Positions 3,822-23,269 of a stretch of DNA of 64,000 nt are shown piece after piece. How positions within the stretch are numbered: the first letter of the stretch is position 1; each line of letters opens with the position of its first letter. Origin of the DNA: an uncultured Kiritimatiellota bacterium (GTDB taxonomy: Bacteria > Verrucomicrobiota > Kiritimatiellia > RFP12 > UBA1067). Made by a program: the position numbers and the translations under genes. The stretch lies in the NCBI GenBank assembly GCA_934621385.1, contig CAKTUI010000003.1:17998-81997 (forward strand), read 5' to 3'. The notes beneath the pieces are model-generated. The model was given only the letters and a program-made list of their open reading frames with translations, ran no database searches and was not told the origin of the DNA.

Positions 3822-5963
3822 CTATTTGCCCTTCGGACAGGTTGGGCAACCCTTTTCGACCGTCGCCTTCGTGTCACGGTCCGGTCCAAAATGCACATTC
3901 CACGCGGCATCACGCACGTCCGTGACGTCAGGGGCAAGTCTACCGTCGGCACCGGCCGTCAGGCGGATGAAGTGCGGCGCGTGCGCGGGCAGCGTCACGG
4001 TGTAGACGTCGCGCACCGGCTTCTCGTCAATCCGACGCCAAAGGTCGCGCACCTTCCACTCGCCGACAAGTCCGAGCCCTCTCAGATCGACGACGGTCGT
4101 GCGCGTCTCGTACGAGAGGTTCACGATGCCGACGGCGATGGATCCGTCCTCGAGCGGACGCGCCCAGATGTCCTCGTAGAAGCCCGGCTCGTCCCCGCCG
4201 ACGCGCGCCGCAGCCTTCCCGAGCGGATCCTGGTTGACGGCCAGCACCTCGGGATTCGTCAGGATCGCCCGCGTGAAGTCGTCGAGCTTCGTCAAATCGC
4301 AGCCGATCAGGAGCGGCGCGGCGAAGAGCGACCAGAGCGTCATGTGCGTGTACTGCTCGTTTGGCGTCAGGCGCGTCGGATGCAGCTTCGGGCCCCAGCC
4401 GACCCAGCCGACAATCAGCATGTCGGGATCGTTCCACCCGCCGGGACCGGCAAAGCGCTCGAGCCCCCGCTGGGCAGATGCAATGAAACGCATCGACTCC
4501 CACGTATCCTCGATGTCATGCGTTGTGCGCCAGCACTGTCCTCCGACCTTGTCACCCCAACGCGAGACGCGGTCCATGCCGTACTGGCAGATCGAATAGA
4601 CGATGTCACGGTCCTGTCGCGCGAGCTCACGTCCCAGCTTGAGATAGGGCGCCTGATAATAGAGCGTCGGATCGTCCTTGGCTACGGCCACGTCGGTGTA
4701 GCTGCACCAGTCGTACTTCACGTAGTCAAAACCCCAAGCCGCCCACGTCGCCGCGTCAATCGCCTCATATCCCCAACTGCCCGTGCAACCGCCGCAGGTG
4801 AGCGGACCCGGCGAGGAGTAAAGCCCGACCTTGAGTCCCTTCGCGTGCACGTAGTCGGCAAGCCCCTTCATGTCGGGGAAGCGTGCGTTCGTAACGACCG
4901 TGCCGTCACGCCTCCGCATCGGCCCCTGAATGTCGGGATGGGCGTCATCACGCTGGTAGTTGCACCAGAAGTCGTCGATGTTCACATAGCTCCAGCCGAA
5001 GTCGATGAGACGCTCGCGCACGAAGGCGTCTGCCGCGGCACGGATGTCATCCGCCGTGACGGCGCTCGCAAAGCAGTTCCACGAGTTCCACCCCATCGGC
5101 GGCGTAAGGGCGATGCGCTCGCCGACAACCAGACGGTAGACGCGCGTGTCGGACCCCTTCCCGTTCGTCGCCGTGACCGTGACCGGATATTCGCCGCGGC
5201 CGGCGATCGCACCCGTGAGGATGCCTGTCTTCGCATCGAGCGTGACTCCCGCCGGCAGACCCTTTGCCGTGAACGTCATCGGACGAGCCCCCGAGCAAGG
5301 CAAGGTGAAGAGCAGCGGATGCGTCGGCCGCACGCCGAAAACATACGGCGCATTGAGATGCGGCTCTTCACCGATCTTCGGCGAAAGAATGCCGAACTGC
5401 TCCGGAACGGTTTCGCACCGGACCGGCCGAAGCGTCGTTCCCGGCATCACCTCGAAGTCCGCCTCGCACCAGTCGGCGAGGTCATTGCAGAGCCCGTCAC
5501 CGGCGTCGTCCACCCAGAGGATGACGCGCTTGGCACCCCTCAAGGGCACGTCGATGCGTTCCGCCGCGTTGCCGAAACGATGGACGGGCGAGCGAAAGAC
5601 GCGCCTGCCGTCGGCAAAGACCGAGAACCGGACCGAACCGCGCCGCACGGTCTCCATGCCTGCATCCGCACCGATTGTCGCCGTGAAGCGAACGGCCTCA
5701 CCCTTCACCTCGATCTCGTAAAAGCTCGCCGCATGCGTGCCCACGCCTCGCCTGAACGTCTCGCCGCCGATCCGAAACGGCGTTCCGCCGTTGGCGACAT
5801 TCACCGTCGGCGGATTCCACCCGCTCGTCATCGTCGAGAGGTCAAGCGTCTCCAGTCCGATGCGCTCGGTCCCCGTTGAAGCGTTTTTAACCGTTCCCGC
5901 GCATCCGCCGAGCAAGGCCAGCGCCAAGCCAACTGCGCAATAAACGTTCGTATTCCTTTTCAT
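3822..5963 (-). CDS. Lipoprotein GH27 alpha-galactosidase with N-terminal NPCBM-like carbohydrate-binding module
   Basis: 713-aa ORF with lipobox LALLGGC. The N-terminal module (GVGTHAAS..FSVFADG..LWVDDAGDG) is NPCBM-like. GH27 core motifs are PPMGWNSWNCF, YVNIDDFW and KYDWC. Confidence 0.85.
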   Translation of the reverse strand: MKRNTNVYCAVGLALALLGGCAGTVKNASTGTERIGLETLDLSTMTSGWNPPTVNVANGGTPFRIGGETFRRGVGTHAASFYEIEVKGEAVRFTATIGADAGMETVRRGSVRFSVFADGRRVFRSPVHRFGNAAERIDVPLRGAKRVILWVDDAGDGLCNDLADWCEADFEVMPGTTLRPVRCETVPEQFGILSPKIGEEPHLNAPYVFGVRPTHPLLFTLPCSGARPMTFTAKGLPAGVTLDAKTGILTGAIAGRGEYPVTVTATNGKGSDTRVYRLVVGERIALTPPMGWNSWNCFASAVTADDIRAAADAFVRERLIDFGWSYVNIDDFWCNYQRDDAHPDIQGPMRRRDGTVVTNARFPDMKGLADYVHAKGLKVGLYSSPGPLTCGGCTGSWGYEAIDAATWAAWGFDYVKYDWCSYTDVAVAKDDPTLYYQAPYLKLGRELARQDRDIVYSICQYGMDRVSRWGDKVGGQCWRTTHDIEDTWESMRFIASAQRGLERFAGPGGWNDPDMLIVGWVGWGPKLHPTRLTPNEQYTHMTLWSLFAAPLLIGCDLTKLDDFTRAILTNPEVLAVNQDPLGKAAARVGGDEPGFYEDIWARPLEDGSIAVGIVNLSYETRTTVVDLRGLGLVGEWKVRDLWRRIDEKPVRDVYTVTLPAHAPHFIRLTAGADGRLAPDVTDVRDAAWNVHFGPDRDTKATVEKGCPTCPKGK

Positions 5964-6105: not shown

Positions 6106-6934
6106 GGGCACCACGGTGATTTAGTTCACCCTCGTTCTCGCTGGTGTTTGCCGCGGTCACCCTCCCGGGGTTAACAGATTCCCTGAAATGTGAGATACTA
6201 CACTCGTCCCATTGTGGACGGGAAGGAACGAATCTGCCAATGCTGACGATGAGACAGGTGACCAAGGCGACGGAACTGAAGCGCTTCAAGGAACTTGAGG
6301 GCGAGTACCACTACATGGGCGAGACCCATTCCGGCGGAGACACGATGCGCCTCGTCTTCGAGGAGGACGGGAAGTGGGTCGCGCTGATGGTGTGGGGCTC
6401 TGCGTGCTACCACATCAAGCCGCGCGACGCCTATGTCGGCTGGGCGAACTCGGTCAAGGCGATCGCGCGGTTCGCGAAAAGGCTGACGATGGCCCAGCGC
6501 AGGGCCCTGTGCATGCCCCGCGCGAAGAGCAAGGCCGGCGTCGTCGCGAAGCACGAGTACAAGGTGCCGTGCCACGTGACGCTCCACAACTTCCTCCGCG
6601 CGCTCGACCTCGACGACTTCGGCGAGAAGCTGTCCGGGTGGATGGCCTCGCAGGGCGACGGGACGCTCCCGCGCCAGCTCGTGCTCGACGGCAAGTCCGT
6701 CAAGGAGGTGATGGGGGTCGTGTCCGTCGTCAACGCGGAGACGGGCGCACCCGTCGCGGTGACCGAAGCGAGCTTTCCGCCAGGTGCCGTCATCGCCAGG
6801 AAAATCGAAAAAGAGGAGTCGGGCGCACGATTGAAGATGCGATGAATGCGCCTGAAGCGCCAACTGAAGCGCCACGTCCGCATTCCGTGAGGATGGACGG
6901 GCATGAGTCAGCGCCAAACTAAATCACCGTGCCC
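6106..6934 (+). mobile_element. Internally deleted IS remnant (ISAs1-like with DUF4338-like N-terminus) bounded by inverted repeats
   Basis: Left end GGGCACCACGGTGATTTAGTT (6106-6126) versus reverse complement of the right end GGGCACGGTGATTTAGTT (6917-6934). At ~830 bp it is too short for a full transposase. Confidence 0.6.
6240..6845 (+). pseudogene. Truncated DUF4338-like / ISAs1-type transposase N-terminal region
   Basis: EGEYHYMGETHSGG..WVALMVWGSACYHIKPRDAYVGW resembles DUF4338. VPCHVTLHNFLRALDLDDFGEKLSGWM..LVLDGKSV resembles the ISAs1 N-terminal region. No DDE catalytic domain follows. Confidence 0.5.
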
Positions 6935-6981
6935 AAAAAATTGATGCCGCTGAAAAAAGTCCGTTCCGGGTGCGCGGATTA

Positions 6982-6990
6982 TGGTATAAT
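6982..6990 (+). promoter_or_regulatory. Extended -10 promoter (TGGTATAAT) with no ORF downstream
   Basis: Exact match to the window-wide TGGTATAAT motif. It faces the structured non-coding stretch 6997-7310. Confidence 0.5.
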
Positions 6991-6996
6991 AGGGGC

Positions 6997-7310
6997 GTTC
7001 TTTTGAGAGTGGGCGAGCGGGAACCCGTCCGCCGGCGGAGCAACGGTTTCGCCGCGGAGGGAGGGGCGAATGCGCACCACCGACAGGACGGGGCGTTGAC
7101 GGACGGAGGAAGGGAAAGCACGCGGGTGCTTTCCGAAAACCACGCGGGTGCTTTCCCTTCGTATTCGGTTCAACAGACCTTGGGCAAGCAAAGGCGAGAC
7201 CTTGGTCAATCAAAGGCCGGCCACCCCTGTCAGGCAGGGAAACCACCTCGCTTAGGCGAGGAAAACCCTGCGCTCAGGCAAGAAACCCCCGTGTCTCGGG
7301 CAGGTCGGCA
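6997..7310 (+). ncRNA. Candidate structured sRNA (mutually exclusive hairpins plus six short stem-loops)
   Basis: No credible ORF on either strand. Hairpin GGAAAGCAC-GCGG-GTGCTTTCC lies at 7113-7134, with a duplicated 3' arm at 7148-7157. Six 19-24-nt units at 7177-7308 each begin ACC and fold into a 4-6-bp GC stem-loop. Transcript ends are unknown. Confidence 0.3.
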
Positions 7311-7324
7311 TCAGACTTTCCCTT

Positions 7325-7650
7325 TCACTTCTGGCACTTGGGACAATACCAGCTCGTGCGGCCGCCGAGCGTCACTTTGGCAACGGCGGTTCCGCAGACG
7401 GGACACTGCTTCTGCGCGTAGATTTTCAGCTTCTGGACGAACTTGCCCTCCGAGCCGTCCACGTGATGCCGCAAAGAGCATCTCGCCCGTGAAATCCTTC
7501 GAAAGCGGCTCGACGCCGATGCCCGCAAGTCCCTCCGGCCAGCCGAAACGCCGACCGCTCCGTCGAAGACAAGCCCCGCCTCCATGAAGACGTCCAACAC
7601 CCCCGCGTGATGACGCCGCAGATTGAAAAGCTGCTGAACCTTTCAACGCC
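7325..7650 (-). pseudogene. mutM: Formamidopyrimidine-DNA glycosylase remnant (frameshifts and internal deletions)
   Basis: The C-terminal zinc finger is intact (KQCPVCGTAVAKVTLGGRTSWYCPKCQK). Upstream pieces (RRFGW..GIGVEPLSKDFTGE) sit in another frame and the middle of the protein is missing. Confidence 0.7.
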
Positions 7651-8367
7651 TGCCGTGATGATCCACTGCCCCGACGGAACGATACCGCGCCACGGGACTC
7701 TCTACGCCCTTCTCAAGAACGACGACCGCGCCGTGGGGAAGACTGCCGCGGAGCACTTTCTCTCCAAGTCGAAGTTCAGGACATACGCCTTCATACCGAC
7801 GCCTTCGCCGACGAACTGGTCCGACGAGCGGCTTGCGGGCTTTGCAGAGAGGCTCGCGCAAAAAGGGGCGGCGCCGGTCGTCTGGCGTCAGGAGCGCGGA
7901 CCGCTCGAGGACTTCCTCGCGTCCCTGCCAAAGCCAGCCGCGGTCCTTGGCGCGACGGATCTCGAGGCAATCAACGTTCTGACCGCCTGCCGCAAGCTCA
8001 GGATAGACATCCCCTCGCGCGTCGCAGTGCTTGGAGTCGACGACGACGAGATGAGGCGCTGTCGTTCGTCCGGAGACATTTCGCCGAGGGCATCGGCGTA
8101 GACGACGTGGTCAAGCACCTGGGCGTCTCGCACTCGCTCGTGCGCGAGCGCTTCCGCAACGTGCACGGCAAGTCACTGCGCGACGTCATACTCGACATGC
8201 GCGTAAAGGCGGCGATGTCGCTCCTTTCGCGGACAAAGGCATCCGTGCGCGAAATCGCGCTAAAGGTCGGCTTCTCTTCAGACGCCCATTTCGTCCGCTA
8301 CTTCAGGAAAAAGACGGGAACGACTCCTGCCGCCTACCGAAATTCAACAGCACTACATCGTTTCTGA
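7607..8367 (+). pseudogene. XylR-like AraC-family regulator remnant (N-terminally truncated, internal deletion ~8050-8070)
   Basis: ORF 7607-8101 carries a periplasmic-binding-like sensor part (..PKPAAVLGATDLEAINVL..VAVLGVDDDE). ORF 8107-8367 carries the AraC HTH (VREIALKVGFSSDAHFVRYFRKKTG). The junction jumps frame (VDDDE / ALSFVRRHF). Confidence 0.65.
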
Positions 8368-8604
8368 ACCAAAAGGGTCACACTTGATTGCCACACCCGA
8401 TTGACACAGTGTCCGTTCGTATTCACCACATCCGAGCGGAGAGAATGGACAGTGAGCGAGACAAAGCAGGTGGTCACGCCTGAAACCGATTGCTCGCGGT
8501 TCTCTATGCAGCACTCATGGCAGCATTGCCCGCAACTCCGCAATCTCCTTCGGGTCGCGAGTAACGGAGCTTACAGCCTCAGGATTCATCGCCACGCTAA
8601 ATTA

Positions 8605-8634
8605 CCACAGTCATGTTGAAGCCGATGACTGTGG
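8605..8634. repeat. Perfect 10-bp inverted repeat (CCACAGTCAT-n10-ATGACTGTGG)
   Basis: Read directly from the sequence. It lies in non-coding DNA between the xylR remnant and the tRNA-like gene. Confidence 0.6.
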
Positions 8635-8808
8635 CCATTCCTCAACATCGCCGCGACAAATCTGCCGCGCTTGGTGTTGAGCAGTGCCACGCTTTTTGAC
8701 GCGAAACGTTCTGCTTTTCCCTCGCTTCAGCTTCATTTTGTGTCCCCCAATGTGTCCCCCACCACTTGAGGTGTATAGGGCTGTATGAAGGTGTATGCCG
8801 ACGAGAGA

Positions 8809-8856
8809 GAAAAAGTGCGTTTCACCCCCGTTTTTATTGAGTAAAGCGCACTTTTA
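8809..8856 (-). terminator. Putative intrinsic terminator of the tRNA-like gene
   Basis: Minus-strand RNA AAAAGUGCGCUUUAC..GUGAAACGCACUUUU forms a ~15-bp stem with one mismatch, followed by UCUCUCUC. Confidence 0.45.
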
Positions 8857-8859
8857 AAG

Positions 8860-8921
8860 TGGTGGAGGTTGAAAGATTCCAAAGCCCGACCCACTTGCGC
8901 CGAGCGGAGAAACCAACCTCC
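8860..8921 (-). ncRNA. 62-nt tRNA-like RNA gene or truncated tRNA pseudogene with encoded ACCA end
   Basis: GGAGGUUG...CAACCUCC-ACCA gives an 8-bp acceptor-type stem. The T-loop-like UUGGAAU is degenerate, and the element is ~14 nt shorter than a tRNA. It is flanked by its own promoter and hairpin. Confidence 0.5.
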
Positions 8922-8934
8922 AAAAACGCCTTAT

Positions 8935-8943
8935 ATTATACCA
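8935..8943 (-). promoter_or_regulatory. Extended -10 promoter (TGGTATAAT) driving the tRNA-like gene
   Basis: Reverse complement of attatacca. The predicted start is ~7 nt upstream of the tRNA-like 5' end. Confidence 0.5.
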
Positions 8944-9105
8944 TATTTCGGGTGTGACGAGGTTCTGAATATGTGATAAATGCTGGACCATGAAACTTCT
9001 CCCCGAAAAAGTTGGTGGAGAAAATATTTCTATTTTTTCTGATTCAACTGATGCCATCGAAGCCCCCTATAGTGTCCAGGCACTAATACGTATAGCGATT
9101 AGACT

Positions 9106-9867
9106 TCATTGATGTAGCACTTCTAATAAGACGGAGAATGCCTTGCCAACATCAAGCGCCTTAATTGTATGCTCTTCAAGGTTAATTCCGCAAATCATCG
9201 CGACAAGATTACCTTGCTCGTCTAATAATGGGGCGCCGCTACATCCCTCAAAATTCGTTATATCCTCAAGCCCGTCTATATCCCGAATACGAAAGTATCT
9301 ATAAAAGCCATCATCGTAAGTATGATCAATATGCGTATATGCTGCCGGGGTCTGATAAAAGTAAAACCGATTAGAATCGTCATAGGTTTCGTTATCGTCG
9401 GCATATTGAGGTTTTATCATTCCGCAGAATGAACATTCTCCATCAACTGGGCACTCAATATGTGGGACGGGAAATGTTTTTAATGGAACTATAACTTCAT
9501 TCCCCCCCTGTACCTTTAGATGTCTGATTGGTTTACAGTCCGTGGGCAAATCAAACAGGGCTCCATCCACAATTGTCCTATCATCAAGGCACCAAACAAT
9601 TTCGCCTGAAGGAACATTATCATTTAGCGCACATTGATTAGCAGACAAAAGGCATGCGCCTCCTCCCAACGGCAAGCATTTCGTACCATACGAAGGATCG
9701 TAGTCAAGTTGTAACGACAGCCCCTCACCAAAGGCATGACCTACAGTAAAAAGGTAATTCCTACATTCGTGGCTCAATATAATGCCTGACGCAGATGCTA
9801 TTGGCATATGGCCCTCACTCAGTTTTACCAACTGAGCAGTGGAGGCAAACAAAGTATCAATATCCAT
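9106..9867 (-). CDS. Cytoplasmic trypsin-like (S1-type) serine protease
   Basis: 253 aa in low-GC DNA with an ordered triad: TVGH(44)AF, D(101)GALF, GCS(210)GAPLL. No signal peptide. Confidence 0.65.
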   Translation of the reverse strand: MDIDTLFASTAQLVKLSEGHMPIASASGIILSHECRNYLFTVGHAFGEGLSLQLDYDPSYGTKCLPLGGGACLLSANQCALNDNVPSGEIVWCLDDRTIVDGALFDLPTDCKPIRHLKVQGGNEVIVPLKTFPVPHIECPVDGECSFCGMIKPQYADDNETYDDSNRFYFYQTPAAYTHIDHTYDDGFYRYFRIRDIDGLEDITNFEGCSGAPLLDEQGNLVAMICGINLEEHTIKALDVGKAFSVLLEVLHQ

Positions 9868-10039
9868 GACTTAATCATTCCTCGTTTTACTGCGGGCATG
9901 CAAGCCGCTGCACTTAGTCTTACATCCTTCGTATGTCGGCGTACCCGATCAGGACATTAAGCCGATAGACCTGCTCGACGCTGTTATTGTCGAATCATAA
10001 CAATATTGTAGGATGAAAAATGCACTGACGACTCCTACT

Positions 10040-10993
10040 TCAGCTATTGACGAAATCCATAAACATTTGTTTGGCAGTCGCTTCCTTAATAGAAGCTTTA
10101 TTAGCCAGATGTTCTAACATGTCCAAGATGAATCTCGTCCCTTTGTCTGCATTGTCGCGCAAAGCTACAAGATCAGCTTTACTTCTCACTCCAGAACTCA
10201 TCGCAAAAACATCACACACCTGATTAAGCGAATCAAGAAGTTTTACCAGAACTTCGTCATGGAGGTATTCCCCCTTTAGTGTCAATATATCTGCCGACAT
10301 CTCGATTATGGACCAGTTCACGTGACAAACAGGATCCAACATTCTGTTGATCTGATGAATGTCCTCGCAACGAGAAAAATCTTGGAGCCGACGATAAGCA
10401 GCTCCCGAACAGGAAATCCATTTAGTAACACTTATACCATCTGATCTTATGTCCGGCTGTTCGCCGTTCACATACGTAGCAAGAATATGCCAAACACGCT
10501 TCAGAGCATCTTCATCAATACTCAAGGTCCACTTTGAAATTGTATCAAGTGAAATAATATTCTCAATCTTAAAGTCACACGGGAACTCCAGTCCTTTTAA
10601 AGCATCTTCGCTCCAGCTCTTAACTGGAGGAGGCACAATATTAAAGGACAGAAAATAAAAAGAATAACCTTTATAATTTGGAGATGTTTTAGTCAATGCA
10701 TCTTTCAACTTTGACAAGGTACGTTCGGATGTCACTTGAACAACGACATGCTTATCATCATCCACTAAATCAAATCCTGGATGATTAAGTGCCTTTGGAT
10801 TAACATTGGTAAGATTCCAACCATCATTAGCCTTAAACTCATTCAGAATTTTACAAAATAGGTCTTCTGCATGATGGTTCAAATTGAAGAATCCTACACC
10901 ATTCTGTAGCATTGTGCATACAGAAAATATGCTCAGTTTCATGTGAATATCATCAATGATTGCTTGTCTCGTTGGTGGAATCGTGACCATCAT
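10040..10993 (-). CDS. SMEK-domain-like protein with helical C-terminal region
   Basis: Start moved to ATG 10993 (GGAG 6 nt upstream). The N-terminus NLNHHAEDLFCKILNEF..WNLTNVN..HPGFDLVDDDKHVVVQVTSERTLSKLKDAL resembles the SMEK N-domain. Low GC. Confidence 0.4.
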   Translation of the reverse strand: MMVTIPPTRQAIIDDIHMKLSIFSVCTMLQNGVGFFNLNHHAEDLFCKILNEFKANDGWNLTNVNPKALNHPGFDLVDDDKHVVVQVTSERTLSKLKDALTKTSPNYKGYSFYFLSFNIVPPPVKSWSEDALKGLEFPCDFKIENIISLDTISKWTLSIDEDALKRVWHILATYVNGEQPDIRSDGISVTKWISCSGAAYRRLQDFSRCEDIHQINRMLDPVCHVNWSIIEMSADILTLKGEYLHDEVLVKLLDSLNQVCDVFAMSSGVRSKADLVALRDNADKGTRFILDMLEHLANKASIKEATAKQMFMDFVNS

Positions 10994-11067
10994 TTCTATC
11001 TCCAATCTTAAGAACAAAATTATCCCTGTCCGAGCACTCGCTGTGGCTGAACGAGTACACGCGCACT

Positions 11068-11403
11068 TCATGCAACCTTGCGGAAATCAAACGGAACCTT
11101 GACGTTAAGCACCAGATGATAGGGTGCGATGGTGTTGGGGATGGTCTCGGCATCGCGGCGGAGAGCTGCCAGATTGTCGGCGAGACTAAACCCGAACTCC
11201 TGCGACAGGAACTCTTGGAGACGCTTTAGCGCGTCGGCATCGTCCCTCACTTCGTCTCTGCCGAACTTTTCAAACTGGCAGTCCTCATGGTCCCCGCCAA
11301 ACGCGACATGGGCGGAAGCAATCCACCCGTCCCGTTCACAGAAGTTCTCCAGCCGTCTCTCAACGGCGATTTCGTAATCAGTCATTCTCTTCATGTCGTT
11401 CAT
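11068..11403 (-). CDS. Hypothetical acidic 111-aa protein
   Basis: ATGA stop/start overlap with the upstream ORF (11400-11403). It is a ~54% GC patch inside ~40% GC DNA. No recognisable motif. Confidence 0.45.
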   Translation of the reverse strand: MNDMKRMTDYEIAVERRLENFCERDGWIASAHVAFGGDHEDCQFEKFGRDEVRDDADALKRLQEFLSQEFGFSLADNLAALRRDAETIPNTIAPYHLVLNVKVPFDFRKVA

Positions 11404-12512
11404 GTGGTCGCCTTAATTAGTTTGAGTTCGTTCATACACTCCTCAATTATCTGCTGATTGTTCAAATAGAGATCATTGCGATGGCATTCCATTACTCGCT
11501 GAATCACCTCGTCCACAACTTGTCGTCCCAAGCTCGCATTCAGAAAACGCTCAAAGGCATGAGTTAGAGAAGTGAACGAAGCATTCGTAATCACCGCCTC
11601 CTGCCGTTCAAATAAGGGTAAGGCCGAAATGGTGTAATTATACTTACGCTCGAACAATCCGTGTTCTCCCAAAGGATCGACACAATATCCCTCTTGAATC
11701 GGTTTACCATCAAAACCGTCGCAAAGGCGCATGGAAAAGTCAAACTGCCCATACAACCTCGCATAGCCATATATTCTATCTCCCGAACTGTATACGCAAA
11801 GCACATGATCGAATTCCCCTCGTTTCTGCAATTCTACATATCGATCATCGGTCACATTCCGACAGAAATTAGAAATCGTATTTATATCATCAAGCTCTTC
11901 GTCAATAAGACATCGACGAAGAGGATCAAACCTGTTTAACATCGCAATCTCGTGGTTCGTTGCCCCAAGCAGGTTGAAACAAGACTTCAAAATACCCTTG
12001 AGACACCCAGCCCCTCCATACGTTACACTCGTCGATAAAAATCCATCGCTTGACAAATCATGTTTTACTTTAGAAACTTGTACTGTTTCTATACTCGAAA
12101 ATCCCTGCGGCATATTCTTGCGAACGAGCGACTCAGCCCATCCTATCTTATGTTCCTTACCAACACATACCTTTACACGCTTCGTTTTACTGTCTACATC
12201 TTCAAACTCTCCAACGATAGGATCTATCAACTCGTAATCACCATTCTTTAAGAGATAACGATGTCCGTCCTCTGAACGCAACTCACACCCCTGCATGGAT
12301 GTGGATCGGTTGCCGGAAGCACCAAGAATATTACGGATGAAACGAAAATTCTTCTCTAATGCGACATCGCAACCATGTCCAAATTTATTCTGTACATCGT
12401 TACATGAAATCTTGTCTGATACCCAAGTGGCTCCCGTGAAATTCTGAAGGATATGCTCTTTCATAGTCCCATCTGGGAGTTCCACGCTTGTGTAGATACA
12501 TTTGGCATTCAT
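11400..12512 (-). CDS. HNH_5-like protein with degenerate zinc ligands
   Basis: Probable start at ATG 12512 (MNAKCIYTS). KC-IY..KEHILQNFTG..SCNDVQNKFG follows the CxxC..EH..CxxCN layout, but only one Cys of each pair is kept. Long C-terminal domain; low GC. Confidence 0.45.
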   Translation of the reverse strand: MNAKCIYTSVELPDGTMKEHILQNFTGATWVSDKISCNDVQNKFGHGCDVALEKNFRFIRNILGASGNRSTSMQGCELRSEDGHRYLLKNGDYELIDPIVGEFEDVDSKTKRVKVCVGKEHKIGWAESLVRKNMPQGFSSIETVQVSKVKHDLSSDGFLSTSVTYGGAGCLKGILKSCFNLLGATNHEIAMLNRFDPLRRCLIDEELDDINTISNFCRNVTDDRYVELQKRGEFDHVLCVYSSGDRIYGYARLYGQFDFSMRLCDGFDGKPIQEGYCVDPLGEHGLFERKYNYTISALPLFERQEAVITNASFTSLTHAFERFLNASLGRQVVDEVIQRVMECHRNDLYLNNQQIIEECMNELKLIKATT

Positions 12513-12532
12513 GGCAATGACACTCTCCCGGT

Positions 12533-13099
12533 TTAGCACTCGAAAATGGGTTGTCCCATCGCGGTCTTCTTCGACGTGAAGAAGAAAGTCGTACAGGGCA
12601 GCATTAGTCGATGGAGAACCAACCCCAACACAAATGCGGCAAATGCGAACGAGGCGTTGATTACAAAGATTATCGTGGGGAGGTCAAAGGCAAAGTTCAT
12701 CTTGCCGGCCGCTTCAAGTATCTTCGCAAAGCTTTGCAGGATGAAGATGCTGGTTATCATGTATGCGATACCGCTGTATCGAATGACGCCCACGAGGACT
12801 GCGACATTTATCGCCAAGCCGAACAAGACGATGCCAATCCTTGCGCCCGCGTTGTTCAAGTTGCCTGTCATGAAAATAATATCAATGGCCTTAAACAGCG
12901 TGATCACTGAAAGGCACCCGACCAATGCCCAATTCAGGAAACGCCATCTTTTGCGTTTAGCAAGCGTGACCTGAAGCGGAAGAATCCGTGACGCGGCATC
13001 CTCCCACTCGGTCATTGAATAGCGGGAGAAGATCGCGCGCTTCGATTCCCCGGCGGCAACCCGCTTCTTGATGTCGGCTGTCAGTTCCTTGCGAGTCAT
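12533..13099 (-). CDS. Four-TM membrane protein (possible immunity or orphan immunity protein)
   Basis: 188 aa with a cytosolic N-terminus followed by four hydrophobic helices. Low GC; sits in the immunity position of the RHS locus. Confidence 0.5.
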   Translation of the reverse strand: MTRKELTADIKKRVAAGESKRAIFSRYSMTEWEDAASRILPLQVTLAKRKRWRFLNWALVGCLSVITLFKAIDIIFMTGNLNNAGARIGIVLFGLAINVAVLVGVIRYSGIAYMITSIFILQSFAKILEAAGKMNFAFDLPTIIFVINASFAFAAFVLGLVLHRLMLPCTTFFFTSKKTAMGQPIFEC

Positions 13100-13111
13100 G
13101 TTAACTGTCCT

Positions 13112-13456
13112 TCATTGATTGGAATAGATGCGGGTAGGTTCTTCCCTTTGACGGCTCTTCTTCGACACATTACAAATCACGACCGCTATGAGCAGTATCG
13201 TCACAGCCGCTACAATGGCCACAAACAGGGTTCGTTCTTTCATGCGCAGAACAATGGGTTCTATAGGCCATAATAGCAATAGGAAAAGCGATATTTGCCA
13301 GAACTCGGTCAACGTAACTTGATTGAACAGCAACGCAAATATCATGGCAGCTTCCGGAAGCAAAAAAAGTAGAGAGCAGACTTTGAACGCTCTCCAATAA
13401 GGCATTGATTTGGAGATCGTAGGCATTTCGGTAGTGAGTAACTTCTTCAAGTTCAT
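13112..13456 (-). CDS. Three-TM small membrane protein (possible immunity protein)
   Basis: 114 aa, hydrophobic, with GGAGGG upstream of the ATG. Low GC. Confidence 0.5.
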   Translation of the reverse strand: MNLKKLLTTEMPTISKSMPYWRAFKVCSLLFLLPEAAMIFALLFNQVTLTEFWQISLFLLLLWPIEPIVLRMKERTLFVAIVAAVTILLIAVVICNVSKKSRQREEPTRIYSNQ

Positions 13457-13472
13457 TAAGTTCTACACCCTC

Positions 13473-13802
13473 CTACTTCTCAAAAAACACCATCAGCAAT
13501 CTTATTAACGCCACGATCACGGCAAAGAGGCAAAAGGCCTGAATGCATCCTTTGGGTAATTTGCAACCCTCTACCATTGGATTATATTTAATAAACACAG
13601 ACTTCTCGCGCATTATCCGTATATCAAGAATGGTTAGAACTACAACCGCGAGAATCCAGAGGCATCCAAGATTTGCAGTTATTTGCACGATGAACGGCAC
13701 GGGTAGTATCAGAAGAATGCCGACACACCACTTCCTCATCAGATGAGAAAGCACCGTTATAATCGCAAGATAAGAAATTAAAATTAGTGTTTGTGTCGTC
13801 AT
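13473..13802 (-). CDS. Candidate cognate immunity protein of the RHS toxin tip (three-TM)
   Basis: 109 aa. Its ATG overlaps the RHS stop as ATGA (13799-13802), the classical toxin-immunity coupling. Confidence 0.6.
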   Translation of the reverse strand: MTTQTLILISYLAIITVLSHLMRKWCVGILLILPVPFIVQITANLGCLWILAVVVLTILDIRIMREKSVFIKYNPMVEGCKLPKGCIQAFCLFAVIVALIRLLMVFFEK

Positions 13803-16800
13803 CTTGCCGGCCCCGTAAAATCATTTGGAATGGGAATGTCAGGATTTGTATCCGTATCAACCTCTGGTGACGGTAAGATGCCGATAACATTAATCGACAC
13901 GTTAAACGTTTCAACAACAACGACACCTGCCGCTGTCGATCCCGAAACTCCGCCTTCGATAACAAACTCGTATCGGATCATTCTAACACTTGTTTCCGTT
14001 GCAGTCCAACGCCCAACCGTTTGTAGTGGTTTCACTTGTCTTATTACAGCAGCTGATCTTGTTACTGACGCCCAACCCGTTGCACAAGCAGCAATTACCT
14101 CGAAAGTCGTATATGAATAGTCCAACGCTGTCTCAAGAGTTGATCCGTGGTATCCCGTAAGGCGATAAGACATTTCTCTATATGATTGTTGTATAAAGGT
14201 GCCTGGAGGTAAAGCACGGCCTTGATAACGGCTTTTCATGTTTTCATAGGCATTATGTATCTGATCCAATCCATAGGCCATTAATGCAGCACCTCCCAAC
14301 ACTCCTCCAACACCTCCAGTGGCAAAAGTCAGTTTAGCACCAGCGATGAATGACAAGGTTCCAGCAAGCATTCTCACGCCATCTGAAAAATAGCCCCAGA
14401 AACTCTCCCCAAGGATGTCTATGTATAGAACGGGATTATTATCACAAAATCCATAGAGGTTCTCGCCTCCATTCTCCTCGATGGGATCGCGGTTGAGCCA
14501 GCGTCCGAGATCGGGACGATAGAACCGACGCTTGTAGCCGATCATTCCCGTCTCGCGGTCGTGGTACTGCGTGCTGAAGCCGAAGGAGAATACGTCGGCG
14601 AGATTGCCGTTGGAATCAACTATGTTGCCGTAGGGATCGTAGACGTACTGCGCTGCGATGCTCCCAGTCTCGGAGACGTACAGGATAATGTTGCCGTTGT
14701 GGTCGTAGCAGGGAATGTAGAACACGCCGTCCACCGACACGGCCAGCAGCCCCTCCACTCCGCCCGCGCCCTGCTCCGTGCCGGACTTGTCCGCGCCCCA
14801 GAAATACTCGAACGTGCGGGTCGTGCCGTTGGCGAACTCGACCTTTTCAAGGACGATGTTGTTGCCGTCCCAGACAAACGTGTGCGTCTCCTGCGTTTCC
14901 CATTCGTGTATCCCGACCGGCGGCGACGGAGGCGGCGCAATGCTGGAATTGAGCCGCTGGACGGTCTTGCGGATTCGCCTGTTGCGGTGGTCGTAGGCGT
15001 TCAGCACGCGGATCACGCCGTTCGTCTCCGCCGCCGAAGTCACCGAGACAAGGCGGTTCTCGGCATCGTAGGCGTAGGCGAACGTGCCGTCGCCCGTCAT
15101 GTTGCCGTCGGCGTCGTACACGGGATTCGCGCCTGCGGAAACCGCCGTGTACTGGTTGAGGCTGTTCGCCGTGTAGGAGTTCGTCTCGGCGTTCGCCGCC
15201 GACCAGAGGCGGTTGCCGATGCTGTCGTAGGCGTAGCCGTAGCGATTCGTGCCAACGCTCGCGGCCGCGAGTTCGGAGCGGCGGTTGTACAGCCATTCCC
15301 GGACGAGCGAAACGGAGTCCGTGGCGTTCGTCGGACGGTTCAGCAAATCGTACTCCGTCGAATACCAGTAGATCGACTGGCCGCCGAAGAAATAGTCGCG
15401 CCGCGTGACGAGGTGCCTGCGGCCCGCCTCGCGCGACAGCCTGGCGGAGAAGCAGTTCCCGTTCGGCAGCGTGTAGACCGTGTTCGTCACATACGAGCCG
15501 TCGTAGGCGAGCGACACCGACACGCCCCGCCCCGCCGCGTTCGTGAGCGCATAGCCGCACACGCGATCCTCCGAATCGTAGAGGCGGACCTTCGCCGAAT
15601 GCCGGACGTTCGTGACGACGACCGCCGTCTCCTGGGCGCGTCGGAACTCGTCGAATGTCCGATTGACGGAGAACGCCTCGCCACTGACGGTTACGCTCTC
15701 ATTCGTGTTCAGCAGCCGGTCGTCGTAGCCGTAGGCGTAGGACGTGCCGTCAGAGAGAGTCGCCGACGCTGTCTTGCCGGAATCGGCGTATGTGTATGCG
15801 ACCGACGGCGTAGCCGTCCCAGAGTAAGTCGTGCCGCTCACGAGGTTGCGCACATTGTAGACGTGTTGCTTCCACACGCCGCGCGCCCATGTCGTGCGCG
15901 TCTTCTTCCCGTTGTCCGTGTAGGAGTATGCGACGCGCGAACCGTCCGCGTACTCTTTCGCCGTGTTCACGCCGCTCGCAGGGTCGAATTCCCATTGCGT
16001 CTCGTCCCATGTCGCGCCGCCGTCGCGTGTCGTGAAACCGTGCGTCTTGCGTCCGGCGGAATCGAAGCCGGACAGGATCGGATAGGCGTCTCCGCTCGTG
16101 GAGACCGTGCGGCCAAGCGGATCGTAGCCGGTCACGGTCTCGTTTCTGAGCGCGTCAGTCCGCCGCACTTCCCGGTTCAGCATGTCGTATTCGGCAGTCG
16201 CTTCCGCGACACGCCCGTCTCGGAAGTCCGTGATGCGCCGCACGACGTTCCCCGACTGGTCGTATTCAAGGCTGTCAACGCGGTTCGTCGCGCCGGACGC
16301 GTCCGACGCCGCCACGGCGACGTTGCGACCAAGCGCATCGTAGGACATCTCGCTTGCCCCGTCGATGGACGTCTGGTCGAGCGTGACGCCATAAATCGAA
16401 CGCGCGGTCACAGGGGTCGAGGCTTCGATCTGCGAAACGGAGGTCAGGACGCCGGTGGCCGCATCGAATGCCGTCTCCGTGACGGTCTCGCGCCCAGACG
16501 CCGCGACGGACACCGTGCGGCTGCGTAGGGCGTCCGAAAGCCCCGTCAGCTGTACCTTGCGAATCTGCACGGAGTTGGTGACGTTGCCCGTCATTCTCAC
16601 CGAGGTGGCGATGCGGTAGATTTGCTGGCTGATCGTCTCGTAGGACGCATCGTTCAGGATCGCGGTTCCGTCCTGCGATGTGCTTGTGCGTTCCCCGCGC
16701 TCGTTGTAGCCATACGTGACAACCGGCGAACCGGTCGTGGATGCGGAGAGGATTCGCGTCGTCGTGCCGTCGTAGGCGTTGACCGTGACAATCGTCGATC

Positions 16801-19800
16801 CGTTCGCGCCACACACGGCGGACGAGACGAGGCGTCCAAGGAAGTCGTATGTCGAGACGGAGTTCGTCACGACACCGCAGTCGTGCGACTCCGTGACCAC
16901 GTACTCGATGCGACAGCCGTCGGCGGCGTAGTCCTCGAAGCGCCGCTCCTCCGTAAACTTGTCGCCGCCCCACTCGCGGCGCGTTGAGGAGCCGCCGCCG
17001 AAGACGCTACGGCTCTTCGTCGCCGTCACGCGCACCCCGTTGGTGAAGACCTCCTCGCCGCTCTCGATGCAGTTGCCGAGCAGATCCGTGCGCGTCATCG
17101 TCATGCGTCCGCGCTCGTCCGTGCGGATCGCGAGGTCGCCGCCGCCGTTCGGATACTCGGTCGCGACGGACGACAGCACCTTGCCTTGGGAGGACCGCCA
17201 GTCGTTCGCCTCGCCCAGAACGAAGCCAACGTAGGTCAGCGTGTTCGTCTCGCGTCCAAGTCCGTCGAAGAAGTGCTGCGTCACGCGGTAGCCACCGTTG
17301 GTCGAAATGTCGGCCTGCCACACGTCCTCGTCCGCATTGTAGAGCTGGTCGTAGCCGGTCACGCCGGAGCGCAACACGCGGCGGCGCTCGCGGTCGCGCC
17401 GCCAGAGGAGGCGGCAGCACGAATAGGCGTTGGTGGTCGACGTGCCGTCGGAGTAGACCGTCGAGCGCAGACGGTTCTTCTCGTCGTAGAGGGACCGCTC
17501 CTCGTCAAGCATCCTGCCGCCGTCCGTCAGGTGCGTGGCCCTGCGGACGACCAGCCCGTAGGCCGCATCGTAGTCCGTCACCGTGTACGTCGGGAGCGGA
17601 CTGGACGAGAAGGACGACCGGGACGTGCAGGTCACGACCGCGCCCGTGGCGACGTAGTCATTCACGGTGAGCAGTCCGTTCTCGTCCAGTTGCGCGGAGA
17701 CCTTGCAGCGCATCACGAGGGGCGTCCCAACCCCCGTCTCGGTGAAGGTGGTCTCGTAGGAATAGGCGTTTCCATCCGCGTTCGGAGCCGCCCCGCCTGC
17801 GGCGGAGCCGGCCCGCCACCTCTCCGCCTTCACGGTCTCGCGTCCGCCTGCGGCGCCGGTCGTGTACCGCCACCACGTCCGCCCAATCATCGTCGCGACG
17901 CCTCCCGCGACAACGTACTTCGTCTCGGTTCGCACCTTGCCGACGAATTCGCCGTCCTCGCCGTCCCCGGCAAGCGGCGCGTAGTCGAATACCGTCACGT
18001 AGGCATCGGACAGCCCCTCCGCGCCCGTCAGGACGTTCGAGACCGCGACCGGGAAGGATCCTGGGATCTCCGAGCCGTTGCGCTGCTCGACGCGGAGAAT
18101 CTCGCGCCCGGACTCGTCGAAGTCGTGGTACTCCCACGGGCGGTCGTTCCCGGTCAGAAGCCGAAGCTTGCCGTGACGCGCCCTGCGTCTGGGATCGAAC
18201 CAGTAGTCGGCCTCGCGTGTGCGCCCGTTGAGCCCCGTCCACTCGTAGCGGTAGGTCTCGCGGATGACAGCGTTCTCGCACTCGCCGTACCGGTGGGATT
18301 CCGAGTAGACGTAGGACAGCTCGTTTCCGTTCGCGTCCCTCACCGTGCGCCATTCCCTCTTCGCCCCGTCCCACGGATCGTTGATCCTGTCCTCGACGGT
18401 CAGCTCCTCCGAGACCTGCTTGAGGTTGTCAAACCTCGTCCAGTCGCCGCCATCGCATGTGAACGTCCAGTCCTCGAGGGGATTGTCGAGTCTGCTGATC
18501 TTGCGGATTCTGATCCGCGACGTGCTCCCGTCCACATTCGAGAACTCCCACGTGTGGTCGAGCGTCCCGGAGAGACGGTCCCGGACGGTCATCCGCACCA
18601 CGCCGGACACGCTCTCGATCACGATGTCCCGGCCGCGTTCGCCCATGCACACGATGTGGCGGCTGTTCCCGTTCGTGGTCACGGTCACGCTGGCGTCCTC
18701 CCTGAACAGGTAGCGGAAGGTCGACGGAGTCACGATGATCGGATCGTCCGTCTTGAAGTAGGCGAATCCGTCCGTCTGTCCCCTGCGGGGCGATCCGACC
18801 GACACGCGGAACGCGAGCGATCCGAGTTCCGTCCCGTCGTAGTGCTGGCAGGAGCCGCCCGTGCAGGTGTCCTCGCACGACTCGCACTCGTCAAGCTCGG
18901 TCAGAAGCTCGGAATGCGTCAGCGATCCGCCGCAGCCGTATTCGCGCAGATGCAGGGCCTTCCCCGACCACACCACCTCGTCGCCGACCTTGACCACGCC
19001 GGTGCATTTCTCGCCGTCCGTGTCGAAGTCTGTCGACACGCCCGCATAGTCTCCGATGCCCGACGAGACGCCTGGTTCGCAGTTGCAGTACCATCCGCCG
19101 GAGTAGTCCCGCGACCAGTTCCCCCAGAGGCACTTGCTGTTGAGCGGGTAGTGTTCCTCGTAGTAGTAGGTGTCGCTGGTCCAGTCGTAGCCGAGGTCGG
19201 AACCCGCATAGCAGTGATCCTCGCCGTACCACACGCTCGGATCGAGAATGAGCAGTATATGGCCTCCCCCGCCATCGCCGGAACGGAGCATGCGCCGCAA
19301 GACCGGCGGCGCAAGCGAGGCGGAGATCTCCGGGAACGGATACGCGCCGGGGCGGTAGACCGCAAGCGTCCCGCCCGAGACGTCGCCGTCGTAAGCGATG
19401 CCGCCGTCCGAGACGCCCTCCATCCCGGAAAGCACCCCCATGTCCGCCTCCTCGTCGGAGAGCGGGCCGTTGCAGGGACGATGCGTCCTGTCGATGGTCA
19501 GTCCGACGGAGGAGTACGATCCGTCCGTGAACACGGAGTACGAGATTCCGTTGTACTTGATCTCCCTGCCGCCCTCCACCTTCAACTCCGGCACGTAGGC
19601 GAGGAGGTGGAGCGGGGTGGCCGTGCGCACCCTGCACCCGGTCGCGACGAGCCGGAGCGTGAGGTTCTCCGCGCCGTTCGTCGAGACCGGGATGCGGAAG
19701 CTGTCCCCGGACGGGGAGCGGACGAGCGAACCCGAGCCGCCGAAGGAGTCCTCCCATTCGAGGCGCATCCCCTCCAGCATCCAGCCCGCCGCCGAATCGG

Positions 19801-21349
19801 GCGCGGCCGAGACGAAGTACTGCTGCCACGGGCTCGTCTTCGAGATGCGGAACGTCCTCTGCCAGACGAGCGCGGGCGCACCCTGCGGAAGCTCGGCGGC
19901 GAATGCGTCCGCCATCTTCCACGACACGAGGGAGTTTGTGACGCAGACGACGGGCGAGGGCGCGGCGTTCGTCGGGTTGAGTCCCAGGAGCATCTCCGTT
20001 CCGAGCGTGAAGCCGTCCTCCTTGGCGGCGGTCGCATCGTCCACGACGTTCGTGTCGCCGAACCAGTGCCGCTCGTACTCGTCGTCGATGCCGTCGCGGT
20101 CGGCATCGGTGGAGGCGGTGGCCGTCTGCGGATCGGGGTCGGAACCGTCCACGAGGCCGTCCCCGTCCGAATCGCGGTTCAGGGGGTCGAGGTTCGCCGC
20201 GACCTCCGCGCCATCGGGAATGCCGTCGAAGTCGGAGTCGGGAAGGTCGGGGTCCGTGCCGAGTCCGAAGATCTCGTCCTCGGTCGGGATGCCGTCGCCG
20301 TCGCGGTCGGGATTGGCGATGTCGTAGGCCGTCACCCGCTGGAAGGCGAGCGAGGTGAGAGACCTGCCGAGCGCCAGAGCGAACCACGCGCCTCCGCCGC
20401 TCCTCACGCCGACCGTCACGTTCGTCAGCAGATCGTCGGACGCAAGACGCGAGAGGTCGAAGCGATAGACGAACGAGCCGCCGGGACGGAACTCGACCTG
20501 GAACGAGACGGGATTAGTCGCGCATCGGTCGAGAAGCACGTTCTGCCAGGTGACGAGAAGCGAGTTCTCCTCCGTCAGCGTCCACCAGAAGACGCAGGGA
20601 CGGTTCGTCTCGTCCAGCTCACCCCAGTTTGCCTCCGGGGCGACGCCGAGGGGAGCCGAGAACGGCGAGAAGCAACGGTTGGTGTCCGCGACGTCAGGCA
20701 TCACCACGCCGTTGGCGAATGCCGCGAGATTCGTCACGTATCCGTCGTCGAACGGGAACGTCCAGTCCGGGAGATCGGCATGGATCCTGACCGTCGCCGC
20801 GCCATGCCGCACCCAGTTGGTTGCGAGACAAGCCCCATTCGGTGCCGAGAAGTCGAACGTCTCGTTCGTGCCGACACCAGTCAGCACGAATCCCGCTGCA
20901 TAGGCGCTCGGCGGAATGCGCGAAACATGCGAAATGGGTGCGTTGGTCGGCGCTTCCGGCTCCGGATCGCCGGTCTCGCCGCCGTTGTCGCGGTCACCCA
21001 GGTTCGGCGCTCCGCCGAACATGCCCAGCATCATGGCCCCGCCGACGTCGTTCGTGTTCGCCTCGCCGTCCACGCCGCCGACGAGATTCGTCATGTCGCC
21101 CTCCGCCCCCTCGACCACGTTCGTGATCGAGCCCCCGTCGCCGCCGGTCGAACCGCCGCCGTAGTCCGGCTTCGTGCCGCCGTAGACAATCGCAGCCGCC
21201 AGCATCCCGCCGCAGACGACCCTTGTCAGCCAGGACTGCGCCTTGAGACGCTTCTCGGCATCCTTGAACACTCCCTTTTCGTAAAGCCAGCAGACGATGA
21301 ACGCCGTCCAAAGGGTGACGACCCCGCCTATCGCGAACAACTTGAACAT
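13799..21349 (-). CDS. RHS-family polymorphic toxin, 2516 aa
   Basis: Two N-terminal TM helices. TSP3-type Asp-rich Ca-binding repeats ([12 protein letters not shown].., ~20059-20314). Long YD-repeat core. Core-end motif [39 protein letters not shown] at ~14405. Confidence 0.9.
   Translation of the reverse strand: [2516 protein letters not shown]
13802..14404 (-). other. Variable C-terminal toxin tip of the RHS protein (201 aa, glycine-zipper-like segment)
   Basis: It follows the DILGE core boundary, and GC drops from about 14480 downward. Contains [25 protein letters not shown]. No recognisable nuclease or deaminase motif. Confidence 0.6.
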
Positions 21350-21358: not shown

Positions 21359-22009
21359 TCACCTCAATGTCATCACGAAGCCCTTGAACTGGATGTCGAC
21401 GAAGAACCGCTCGTTCTGCACGTCGACTCCCCGCGCGGTCATCCGCATCAGATTCCAGTCGCGCCCGTAGAGCCACTCCGGGCGAGCGGTGGAGAGGTCG
21501 GCGAACGCGGCCCCGGTCTCGTTCGTCGCGGTGAACGACTTGACCTCGACCCTGTCCTTTCCGACCCTGTAGTGCCAGTCGAGCGTCCGGGCGACGCCGT
21601 TCGTGCCGACGCCATCCTCCTCGATTCGCTCCCCCGTCCTGAACCGCTCGACGAAGTACCGCCCGCACTCCCAGCCGATCACCACGTCAGTCTCCTGCGG
21701 GGCAAGCCTCCCGTCCGAGTCGGCATCGGTTCCGAACGCCACCTCGACGTTGTTCGATGGCGTTCCGTCGAAGGAGAGCCAGAAGTCGAGAGTCCTCACG
21801 CCGCCCGTCTGGTCGAGGCGGTGGTGCGCGGTCACCTCGGTGTCGGCGAACTCCGGCGCGGGCAGCCGGCGCATCTCCTTCCCGGAGACGGCGAACACCG
21901 CAGCGGCCGCGAACGCCAGCATCGCGGCCATCCATCCCTTCCACTCGATGTTCATCTTCATGTTCTTCAACCTCTCTGTCAAATCCTTCATCTTCAGACC
22001 TTTACGCAT
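21359..22009 (-). CDS. Membrane-anchored hypothetical protein immediately upstream of the RHS gene
   Basis: 216 aa (start ambiguous among three ATGs) with one TM (WMAAMLAFAAAAVFAV) and then a beta-rich domain. Only a 9-nt gap to the RHS start. Confidence 0.5.
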   Translation of the reverse strand: MRKGLKMKDLTERLKNMKMNIEWKGWMAAMLAFAAAAVFAVSGKEMRRLPAPEFADTEVTAHHRLDQTGGVRTLDFWLSFDGTPSNNVEVAFGTDADSDGRLAPQETDVVIGWECGRYFVERFRTGERIEEDGVGTNGVARTLDWHYRVGKDRVEVKSFTATNETGAAFADLSTARPEWLYGRDWNLMRMTARGVDVQNERFFVDIQFKGFVMTLR

Positions 22010-23255: not shown

Positions 23256-23269
23256 ATTCCTCTCCTCCG

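Follow-up and report, generated by a model that had tools for sequence, protein, structure and literature searches.

In some short-Argonaute systems an Mrr-like nuclease effector domain, SMEK, is joined to APAZ (PMC10810196; bioRxiv 10.1101/2023.06.08.544223). We have analysed a locus in which a domain of this type is encoded by one of four same-strand open reading frames (ORFs) behind a giant RHS-type polymorphic toxin gene of an uncultured Kiritimatiellota bacterium. The window, that is, the whole stretch of DNA that was analysed, comprises 64,000 nucleotides (contig CAKTUI010000003.1 of assembly GCA_934621385.1, positions 17,998 to 81,997). The four genes lie on the minus strand in the order ORF1 (11400-12512; HNH_5-like), ORF2 (11068-11403; 111 aa, acidic), ORF3 (10040-10993; SMEK-type) and ORF4 (9106-9867; serine-protease type), and thus occupy 9106-12512, where an earlier note on this DNA had placed them. 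We conclude, with a probability of roughly 70%, that the region is a mosaic of separately acquired conflict-gene candidates arranged around a conserved resident gene, ORF2, and not one four-gene system.

In its plan the region unites features of the variable 3′ part of Rhs/polymorphic-toxin loci with those of a defence-island hotspot. As in the former, a giant RHS gene with a low-GC tip is followed by genes of small membrane proteins, and related loci keep their ends and swap their middles; one of them, L036 (the L-numbers, L001-L052, denote the comparison contigs or loci), carries a displaced fragment and then a second cassette. Unlike in those regions, the conserved 3′ end here is a whole gene under purifying selection, ORF2, and not a homology stretch alone, and the slots hold full-length nuclease and protease genes with their own starts instead of C-terminal toxin fragments with cognate immunity genes. 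The likeness to defence islands and hotspots lies in the company of the ORF3 and ORF4 homologues, which stand beside type I restriction-modification (R-M) genes, Gabija, AbiL, a PDC-M62 (Septu-like) pair and toxin–antitoxin genes, and in the content between fixed flanks (ORF2 and a 197-bp element), which varies between near-identical strains. In contrast to such islands, the region showed neither an integrase nor any other mobility gene, its hotspot would be tied to a multi-copy gene ending toxin operons, and none of the four genes is validated for defence. The region belongs to none of the named defence systems, since the comparison with PADLOC-DB v2 gave no system match (nor had the earlier note recognised one), and since its genes do not occur together elsewhere.

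The evidence for a mosaic comes from the comparison of gene neighbourhoods. A word-indexed search gave seven clusters for each of the four families, the contigs of which were fetched for their neighbourhoods, and metagenome and genome collections were scanned with ORF2 for further loci. We found no locus with all four genes besides the window, and every gene pair separates somewhere. The block consisting of TM188 (the gene of a 188-aa membrane protein), ORF1 and ORF2 (13101-11063) is 90–92% identical to L007-L011, L043 and L045, where the flanking DNA differs on both sides. The block of ORF2, SMEK gene and protease gene (11408-9009) recurs in L017 and L025, in which the gene before ORF2 encodes a DUF2971 protein or a 280-aa protein and is not ORF1, and the protease gene alone (9893-9105) matches L012-16 at 89%. 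In other loci ORF2 is followed directly by the protease gene, with no SMEK gene (L051, a contig that ends before the position of the 197-bp element), by the SMEK gene (L052), by a DUF5131 gene and the 197-bp element (L046), or by a 46-codon ORF, the 197-bp element and dnaX (L033). Distant homologues of ORF1, the SMEK gene and the protease gene were never syntenic with each other in the loci examined. All four ORFs of the window are intact and, with dN/dS values of 0.13–0.24 against their relatives, under purifying selection.

What lies between ORF2 and the 197-bp element varies from locus to locus; the SMEK and protease genes thus fill a second variable slot, which is not part of the toxin operon. 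The alternative proposal of the earlier note, that the genes are extra cargo of the polymorphic-toxin locus, comes closer to these data and fits ORF1, which sits in the variable middle of that locus, and ORF2, which is its last gene. The 197-bp non-coding element (8853..9049, minus strand) closes this downstream slot. L033, where it lies just upstream of dnaX, and L046 contain it with 95% identity, and in L012-14 its initial 58 bp come after the protease gene. A TATAAT-type box in the element precedes a hairpin of ∼65 nt (GGAGGUUGG...CAACCUCC; fold z-score −2.9). No family in Rfam matches the element, which might either encode a small RNA or mark a conserved boundary of the locus. Neither the protease nor the SMEK family was detected in scans of viral contigs, which thus gave no evidence of phage carriage; PHROGs had no match for any of the four proteins, and in NCBIfam SMEK_N was the sole match. 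A promoter and terminator scan of 8700-14000 was uninformative on operon structure, because the sites were no more numerous than in shuffled sequence.

ORF2 holds a special place in these comparisons. The protein is acidic (pI 4.9) and found no match in Pfam, PADLOC, NCBIfam, PHROGs or the Protein Data Bank (PDB), where the best hit of its profile was an insignificant RRM-like match (E=0.22). Relatives of 59–89% amino-acid identity were present in 18 metagenome contigs and 6 genomes, twelve of them in full length; the genomes are labelled mostly as Kiritimatiellia or Verrucomicrobia metagenome-assembled genomes (MAGs), and there are several ORF2 copies per sample. In almost all ORF2 loci the nucleotide similarity to the window spans exactly the segment from the ORF2 ATG to its stop. 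The full-length copies are all intact, with a median pairwise dN/dS of 0.16 and a host-like GC content at third codon positions (0.63–0.82). The usual order on the 5′ side is a giant protein, then one to three members of a 330–410 aa family, then ORF2, with a gap of roughly 8–22 bp before ORF2 in the giant-protein loci. The genes that precede it across loci are unrelated to each other (the F343/390-aa family, DUF2971, 280-aa and 521-aa proteins, and a protease-like protein). In this arrangement ORF2 is the conserved gene with which giant-protein loci end, and it forms a pivot with a variable slot on either side.

The synonymous divergence of ORF2 differs from that of its neighbours. Against L008, dS is 0.84 for ORF2 and 0.29 for ORF1, and against L017 it is 0.71 for ORF2 and 0.22 for the SMEK gene. 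As the dS of ORF2 is far above that of the genes beside it, the low-GC neighbours were placed next to pre-existing, already diverged copies of ORF2. We also observed truncated 5′ fragments of ORF2 (its first 30–52 codons), which recur in L036 (5187-8336), L037, L039-L042, L047 and L048. The L036 fragment continues in frame into a piece of a giant protein, which has 97% identity to a section of the L041 giant, and behind it lie a second cassette and a complete ORF2. This orphan-like array and the ORF2 fragments point to recombination inside ORF2.

Base composition agrees with the earlier description of ∼40% GC genes with a ∼54% patch at the 111-aa ORF: we measured 0.43 for ORF1, 0.39 for ORF3 and 0.43 for ORF4, that is 0.39–0.43, and 0.55 for ORF2, as compared with 0.63 in the left flank, 0.66 in the RHS core and ∼0.57 in the remaining window. 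The low-GC tract, from ∼8500 to 14500, is wider than the four ORFs and takes in the C-terminal tip of the RHS gene and three genes of small membrane proteins. The coupling of ORF2 to the upstream ORF1 by an ATGA overlap, which had been pointed out before, is present.

Of the cargo genes, ORF1 belongs to a large family. On its own it stays below the cutoff of Pfam HNH_5 (PF14279; E=0.008, 16.5 bits against a cutoff of 27.5), but 22 of 31 sampled full-length relatives match this family, the best with 5e-18, and P0010, a homologue at 53% identity, carries PF14279. A profile search with ORF1 over 1.8 billion representatives returned 1,296 clusters at E<=1e-3 (clustered at 50% identity), most of which align over the full length of ∼370–400 aa. 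ORF1 is a divergent member of this stand-alone family, in which the HNH_5 (His-Me finger) domain occupies the N-terminus and ∼310 aa follow on its C-terminal side. The canonical motif of the family is CxxC...EH...CxxCN, of which the clade of ORF1 keeps only C5 and C37, with T8 and V40 where Cys is expected (two of the four Cys lost) and Q41 in place of the motif Asn; the alignment thus bears out the description of an HNH_5 layout with one Cys left of each zinc-ligand pair. E19, H20, G27 and K176 are invariant across the family in an alignment of 31 diverse members. Some other clades have lost all four zinc cysteines, which suggests that the zinc site may be dispensable in this family.

The nearest described relatives of ORF1 are stand-alone HNH_5 proteins labelled ‘HNH endonuclease’ by PGAP (His-Me finger group 1/8), which share full-length homology over ∼380 aa and the invariant E-H, G27 and K176; the ORF1 clade differs from them in lacking two zinc cysteines and in having Gln for the motif Asn. 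Homologues at 24–44% identity stand alone, with nothing ORF2-like behind them, and on Providencia and Vibrio plasmids they are isolated genes with the same PGAP label. The AF2 model of ORF1 reached a pLDDT of 67, and its Foldseek comparison with the PDB returned noise only (sliding clamps at TM about 0.1) and no fold neighbour; the ORF1 profile found nothing significant among PDB sequences. ORF1 had no match in PADLOC, where the wider family has no consistent match, and we found no member of this ∼380-aa HNH_5 family with a tested function. Selection on the gene is purifying (dN/dS about 0.13 against L008). The accompanying TM188 moves together with ORF1 in a block of about 90% nucleotide identity, and it is not found beside distant ORF1 homologues.

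The assignment of the ORF3 N-terminus to SMEK, which had been made by eye, is borne out by strong matches to SMEK_N in Pfam (PF21941; E=3.5e-23, 82.4 bits against a cutoff of 27) and in NCBIfam (NF033859; E=1e-19, 70.2 bits against a cutoff of 30), and all 7 ORF3 homologues carry PF21941. The family profile also matches 26bh_D, the solved Mrr domain of the Kordia jejudonensis Mrr-APAZ prokaryotic Argonaute (pAgo), with E=7.5e-14 over residues 8-170. H41-A42-E43, D75, D78, Q86, T88, S89 and K95 are invariant in the ORF3 family, and the same residues stand in the aligned 26bh_D. On the strength of this match to a solved domain and of the literature on SMEK-APAZ proteins, ORF3 contains an Mrr-like PD-(D/E)xK effector nuclease domain, and this domain is no sensor or adaptor of the kind that the earlier note had inferred among the four genes.

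ORF3 consists of the SMEK domain (residues ∼8–170) and a mostly conserved C-terminal domain of about 150 aa. With the SMEK (Mrr-like)-APAZ effectors of short pAgos (clade S2B, Kordia jejudonensis) it shares the N-terminal 170 residues, including HAE, D..D, QxTS and K; in contrast, its C-terminal 150 residues are unrelated and the APAZ part is unmatched. No match for this C-terminal part was found in Pfam, PADLOC, NCBIfam, PHROGs or PDB profile searches, and the Argonaute-associated PADLOC profile Aga_REase-PNTD aligned at positions 4-172 of 463 only. An APAZ domain was not matched in ORF3, whose C-terminal region has only about 150 aa, and no Argonaute is near: the window neighbours of the gene are ORF2 and the protease gene, and there is no PIWI among the annotated neighbours of the homologues. 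As neither an APAZ domain nor an Argonaute neighbour is present, the ORF3 locus is not a short-pAgo system.

SMEK homologues at 41–43% identity adjoin type I R-M genes, a Gabija pair or a HipA module, and none of them has the protease gene or ORF2 beside it. A hidden conserved partner upstream of the distant SMEK homologues was considered and rejected, as those upstream genes are mutually unrelated. The longest frame of ORF3 would give 343 aa from a start at 11071, overlapping the ORF2 stop by ATGA, and the database entry P0015 is called so. We prefer a start near 10993, because the extension (10994-11071) is not conserved in the homologues, and regard the 343-aa form as a probable over-call.

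For ORF4, the ordered triad and the lack of a signal peptide that had been described before are both confirmed: H44, D101 and S210 (the latter in GCSGAPL) are invariant in 8 family sequences down to 50% identity, and the protein has no hydrophobic N-terminal segment. At the sequence level only the serine motif is matched, and weakly so (Trypsin_2, NS3, FAM111A, alphavirus capsid protease); Pfam Trypsin_2 is reached with E=0.02 and no Pfam family at threshold, and LmuA of PADLOC with E=0.011. All of the 50 best Foldseek neighbours in the PDB are PA-clan proteases, at E about 1e-3 and TM 0.25–0.36 from a low-confidence AF2 model (pLDDT 58). ORF4 is thus likely a cytoplasmic chymotrypsin-fold (PA clan) serine protease, judging from the model and the triad. 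It shares with PA-clan proteases (SplA/V8, DegS, TEV, NS3) the H-D-S order and a GxSGxP-type motif (GCSGAPL), and its top structural neighbours all belong to this clan; it differs from these proteases in its position below the Pfam threshold, in a long, poorly modelled region between His and Asp, and in having no signal peptide, PDZ domain or partner domain. The earlier view that nuclease and protease types such as these recur in prokaryotic conflict systems is sound, as are its domain assignments.

The protease gene travels with at least 26 bp upstream of its start (to 9893), which are shared with L012-16 and L051, and the mobile upstream stretch is probably about 110 bp. At 85% identity (89% at the nucleotide level) the protease is present in L012-15, with no SMEK gene, behind a PDC-M62A/B pair (a Septu-like ATPase and an HNH protein) and a stop-containing ORF2 remnant. 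The 379-aa gene before the protease gene of L012 was considered as a relative of ORF1 and rejected, since tblastn gave no ORF1 match; it encodes a PDC-M62B/PtuB-like HNH protein. Homologues at 52% identity follow an AbiLi/AbiLii pair, with neither SMEK gene nor ORF2. The 116-aa gene behind the distant protease homologues was tried as a diverged ORF2 and rejected (hhalign probability 0.2%). A plasmid search for the protease gave no match.

Two further observations concern proteases of this kind. In L001 (7977-17706) the 52% homologue lies between AbiLi/AbiLii and a conserved gene run, encoding a 116-aa protein, a 363-aa HTH and PD-Lambda-2_B/CapP-like peptidase, a 764-aa protein, a 649-aa DO-GTPase-like protein and a 358-aa coiled-coil protein; this run possibly represents an uncharacterised conflict system in its own right. 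Another trypsin-like family, distant and of 298 aa, with 34% identity to ORF4 around the serine motif and weak matches to Peptidase_S3 and Trypsin_2, is encoded just upstream of ORF2 in L028 (1-468) and L032 (350-1246).

Several points weigh against a mosaic of separately acquired genes. We found in the region no mobility gene or repeat that would account for the insertion, and the AF2 models of ORF1 and ORF4 are both of low or moderate confidence. The protease and SMEK families were searched with the word-indexed tool only, so that distant syntenic pairs may be missed, and the comparison loci come from closely related uncultured lineages, mostly as short contigs, so that the assortment rests on a few tens of loci. 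The order ORF2-SMEK-protease or ORF2-protease occurs in five related loci (the window, L017, L025, L051 and L052), and a distant protease-like gene adjoins ORF2 in L028 and L032. The last two points bear on the strongest rival, by which ORF2 and the protease form a functional unit at the end of giant-protein loci, with ORF2 as, for example, a substrate, inhibitor or regulator and SMEK as an optional third member. In L017, L025, L051 and the window the two genes are adjacent or parted by the SMEK gene only, the protease gene of L012-15 has an ORF2 remnant before it, and the 298-aa protease-like gene of L028 and L032 lies just upstream of ORF2. Nevertheless, at least 15 ORF2 loci have no protease gene, an intact protease gene (85% identity) is kept in loci whose ORF2 is only a decayed, stop-containing piece, the 52% homologues lie behind AbiL without ORF2 (their downstream 116-aa gene being unrelated to it), and ORF2 is much more diverged than its neighbours; we therefore consider such a unit unlikely.

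The ATGA overlap would be explained if ORF1 and ORF2 were a nuclease toxin and its acidic immunity protein, in other words a spare or orphaned cassette belonging to the RHS locus, and the small, acidic ORF2, the place behind the RHS tip and immunity genes, where orphan toxin/immunity modules gather, and the array of L036 that ends in ORF2 would all suit such a pair. However, the same ORF2 stands behind many unrelated upstream genes, ORF1 homologues elsewhere lack an ORF2-like partner and are stand-alone on plasmids, ORF1 begins with its own Met and bears no remnant of an RHS core, and in the shared block the dS of ORF2 is about three times that of ORF1, which makes this pair quite improbable. 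We regard as very improbable that the tract is decaying, non-functional horizontally acquired DNA: the families are small in the word-indexed search, the protease gene is frameshifted in L017, ORF2 is fragmented in L012-15, L036-37, L039-42 and L047-48, and remnant-like ORFs lie between 6 and 8.8 kb in the window, but the four window ORFs are intact, with dN/dS of 0.13–0.24 and invariant catalytic residues. Least probable of all, and hardly to be expected, is one new abortive-infection system of all four genes, the hypothesis of the earlier note, in which a sensor/adaptor, a nuclease and a protease act as a module. Shared strand, tight spacing, low GC and conflict-type domains speak for it; the synteny test, on the other hand, found every pairwise linkage broken in close or distant relatives, and PADLOC gave no match to a system. 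The one-module reading fails because homologues of the four genes do not co-occur.

The operon upstream of the four genes, all on the minus strand, begins with a 216-aa gene (21359..22009), which has no match in Pfam. It stands directly upstream of the RHS gene as the first, conserved gene of giant-protein loci, and a homologue of the L039 family (38% identity) stands before the giant genes of L048 and L039. The RHS-type giant polymorphic toxin (13799..21349; 2516 aa) has YD/RHS repeats and a DPxG-type junction. The core of its gene has a GC content of 0.66, as compared with 0.46 for the C-terminal tip (13799 to about 14500), and the N-terminal TSP3 region of the protein is common to the giants of L007, L033, L036 and L040. 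Behind the tip follow the genes of a 109-aa membrane protein (13473..13802; hydrophobic translation), a candidate immunity protein by its place right behind the RHS tip, and of a 114-aa membrane protein (13112..13456), again with a hydrophobic translation and also a candidate for immunity. TM188 (12533..13099) encodes a basic membrane protein of 188 aa (pI 10.1; Kyte-Doolittle maximum 2.74). Two genes upstream of the RHS gene and on the same strand, 22290-23276 encodes an FtsK/SpoIIIE-family ATPase (E=1e-39), with the 216-aa and a 418-aa gene as neighbours; the ATPase may belong to a machinery that exports the giant toxin. In ORF2-terminated loci with giants devoid of RHS repeats (L033 3-4244; L040 604-4350), an Abhydrolase_6 domain lies near the C-terminus of the giant, and the diverse 330–410 aa family behind these giants has no Pfam match; they may be lipase-type effectors with immunity or accessory genes.

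On the other side of the island, 6144-8850, between it and an alpha-galactosidase gene (3822-5963), has short or weak ORFs only, among them a sub-threshold DruA-like match (6144-6845, plus strand) and a Peripla_BP_3 fragment (7607-8101, plus strand), which suggests that this transition zone consists of gene remnants. A second RHS-like fragment, with 29% identity to residues 1497-1930 of the main RHS protein, is present at the left edge of the window (114-1475, minus strand), and a second stretch of lower GC (0.48–0.50 as compared with about 0.58) at its right end (58000-64000).

In the mosaic reading the architecture, with two variable slots and independently acquired genes in them, is established by the comparisons, as are the domain identities and the purifying selection; enzymatic activities, defence roles and the role of ORF2 are those that we infer from family knowledge. 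The resident operon runs from the 216-aa gene through the RHS giant, small membrane proteins of immunity type and a variable slot to ORF2, which closes many paralogous giant-protein loci in Kiritimatiellia/Verrucomicrobia genomes. A foreign, low-GC block of TM188 and ORF1 would have been dropped into the slot upstream of ORF2, and the slot downstream of it, up to the 197-bp element, would have received a protease cassette, with a SMEK gene added between ORF2 and the protease gene. Each cargo gene would most likely act alone. ORF1 is a putative metal-dependent His-Me finger nuclease, with a C-terminal region (K176, H236, Y276) that may serve control or targeting; ORF3 a putative Mrr-like DNase, gated by its C-terminal domain, which might provide single-gene defence of restriction type or abortive-infection type; and ORF4 a putative intracellular serine protease found in defence neighbourhoods. 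As for ORF2, we guess that it has an accessory or regulatory function specific to its giant-protein operon, and its conserved sequence could double as a homology arm for cassette exchange.

A bolder extension, which we put forward as speculative and rather doubtful, is that ORF2 marks a hotspot of an undescribed kind: it would close every paralogous giant-toxin operon in gut and rumen Kiritimatiellia and serve as a recombination arm on both sides, through which toxin loci, and also strains, would trade immunity-type, nuclease and protease genes. If so, polymorphic-toxin loci would double as defence-gene exchange sites of these bacteria, and the SMEK protein with its C-terminal domain, the ∼380-aa HNH_5 family and the orphan protease would represent new immune effectors that work as single genes. 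The only mildly unusual element of the region is ORF2 as a conserved multi-copy bookend with exchange on both sides, and that this is a distinct, general mechanism is a hypothesis of the same low probability.

These results take a plausible new four-gene defence system off the list of candidates. In its place they raise the questions of whether a stand-alone SMEK-type nuclease can act as a single-gene defence, what the large ∼380-aa HNH_5 family does, and why one small conserved gene ends many giant-toxin operons amid swapped surroundings. The last of these, if our hypothesis on ORF2 holds, could inform how cargo is exchanged between polymorphic-toxin loci and defence islands in uncultured Kiritimatiellia.

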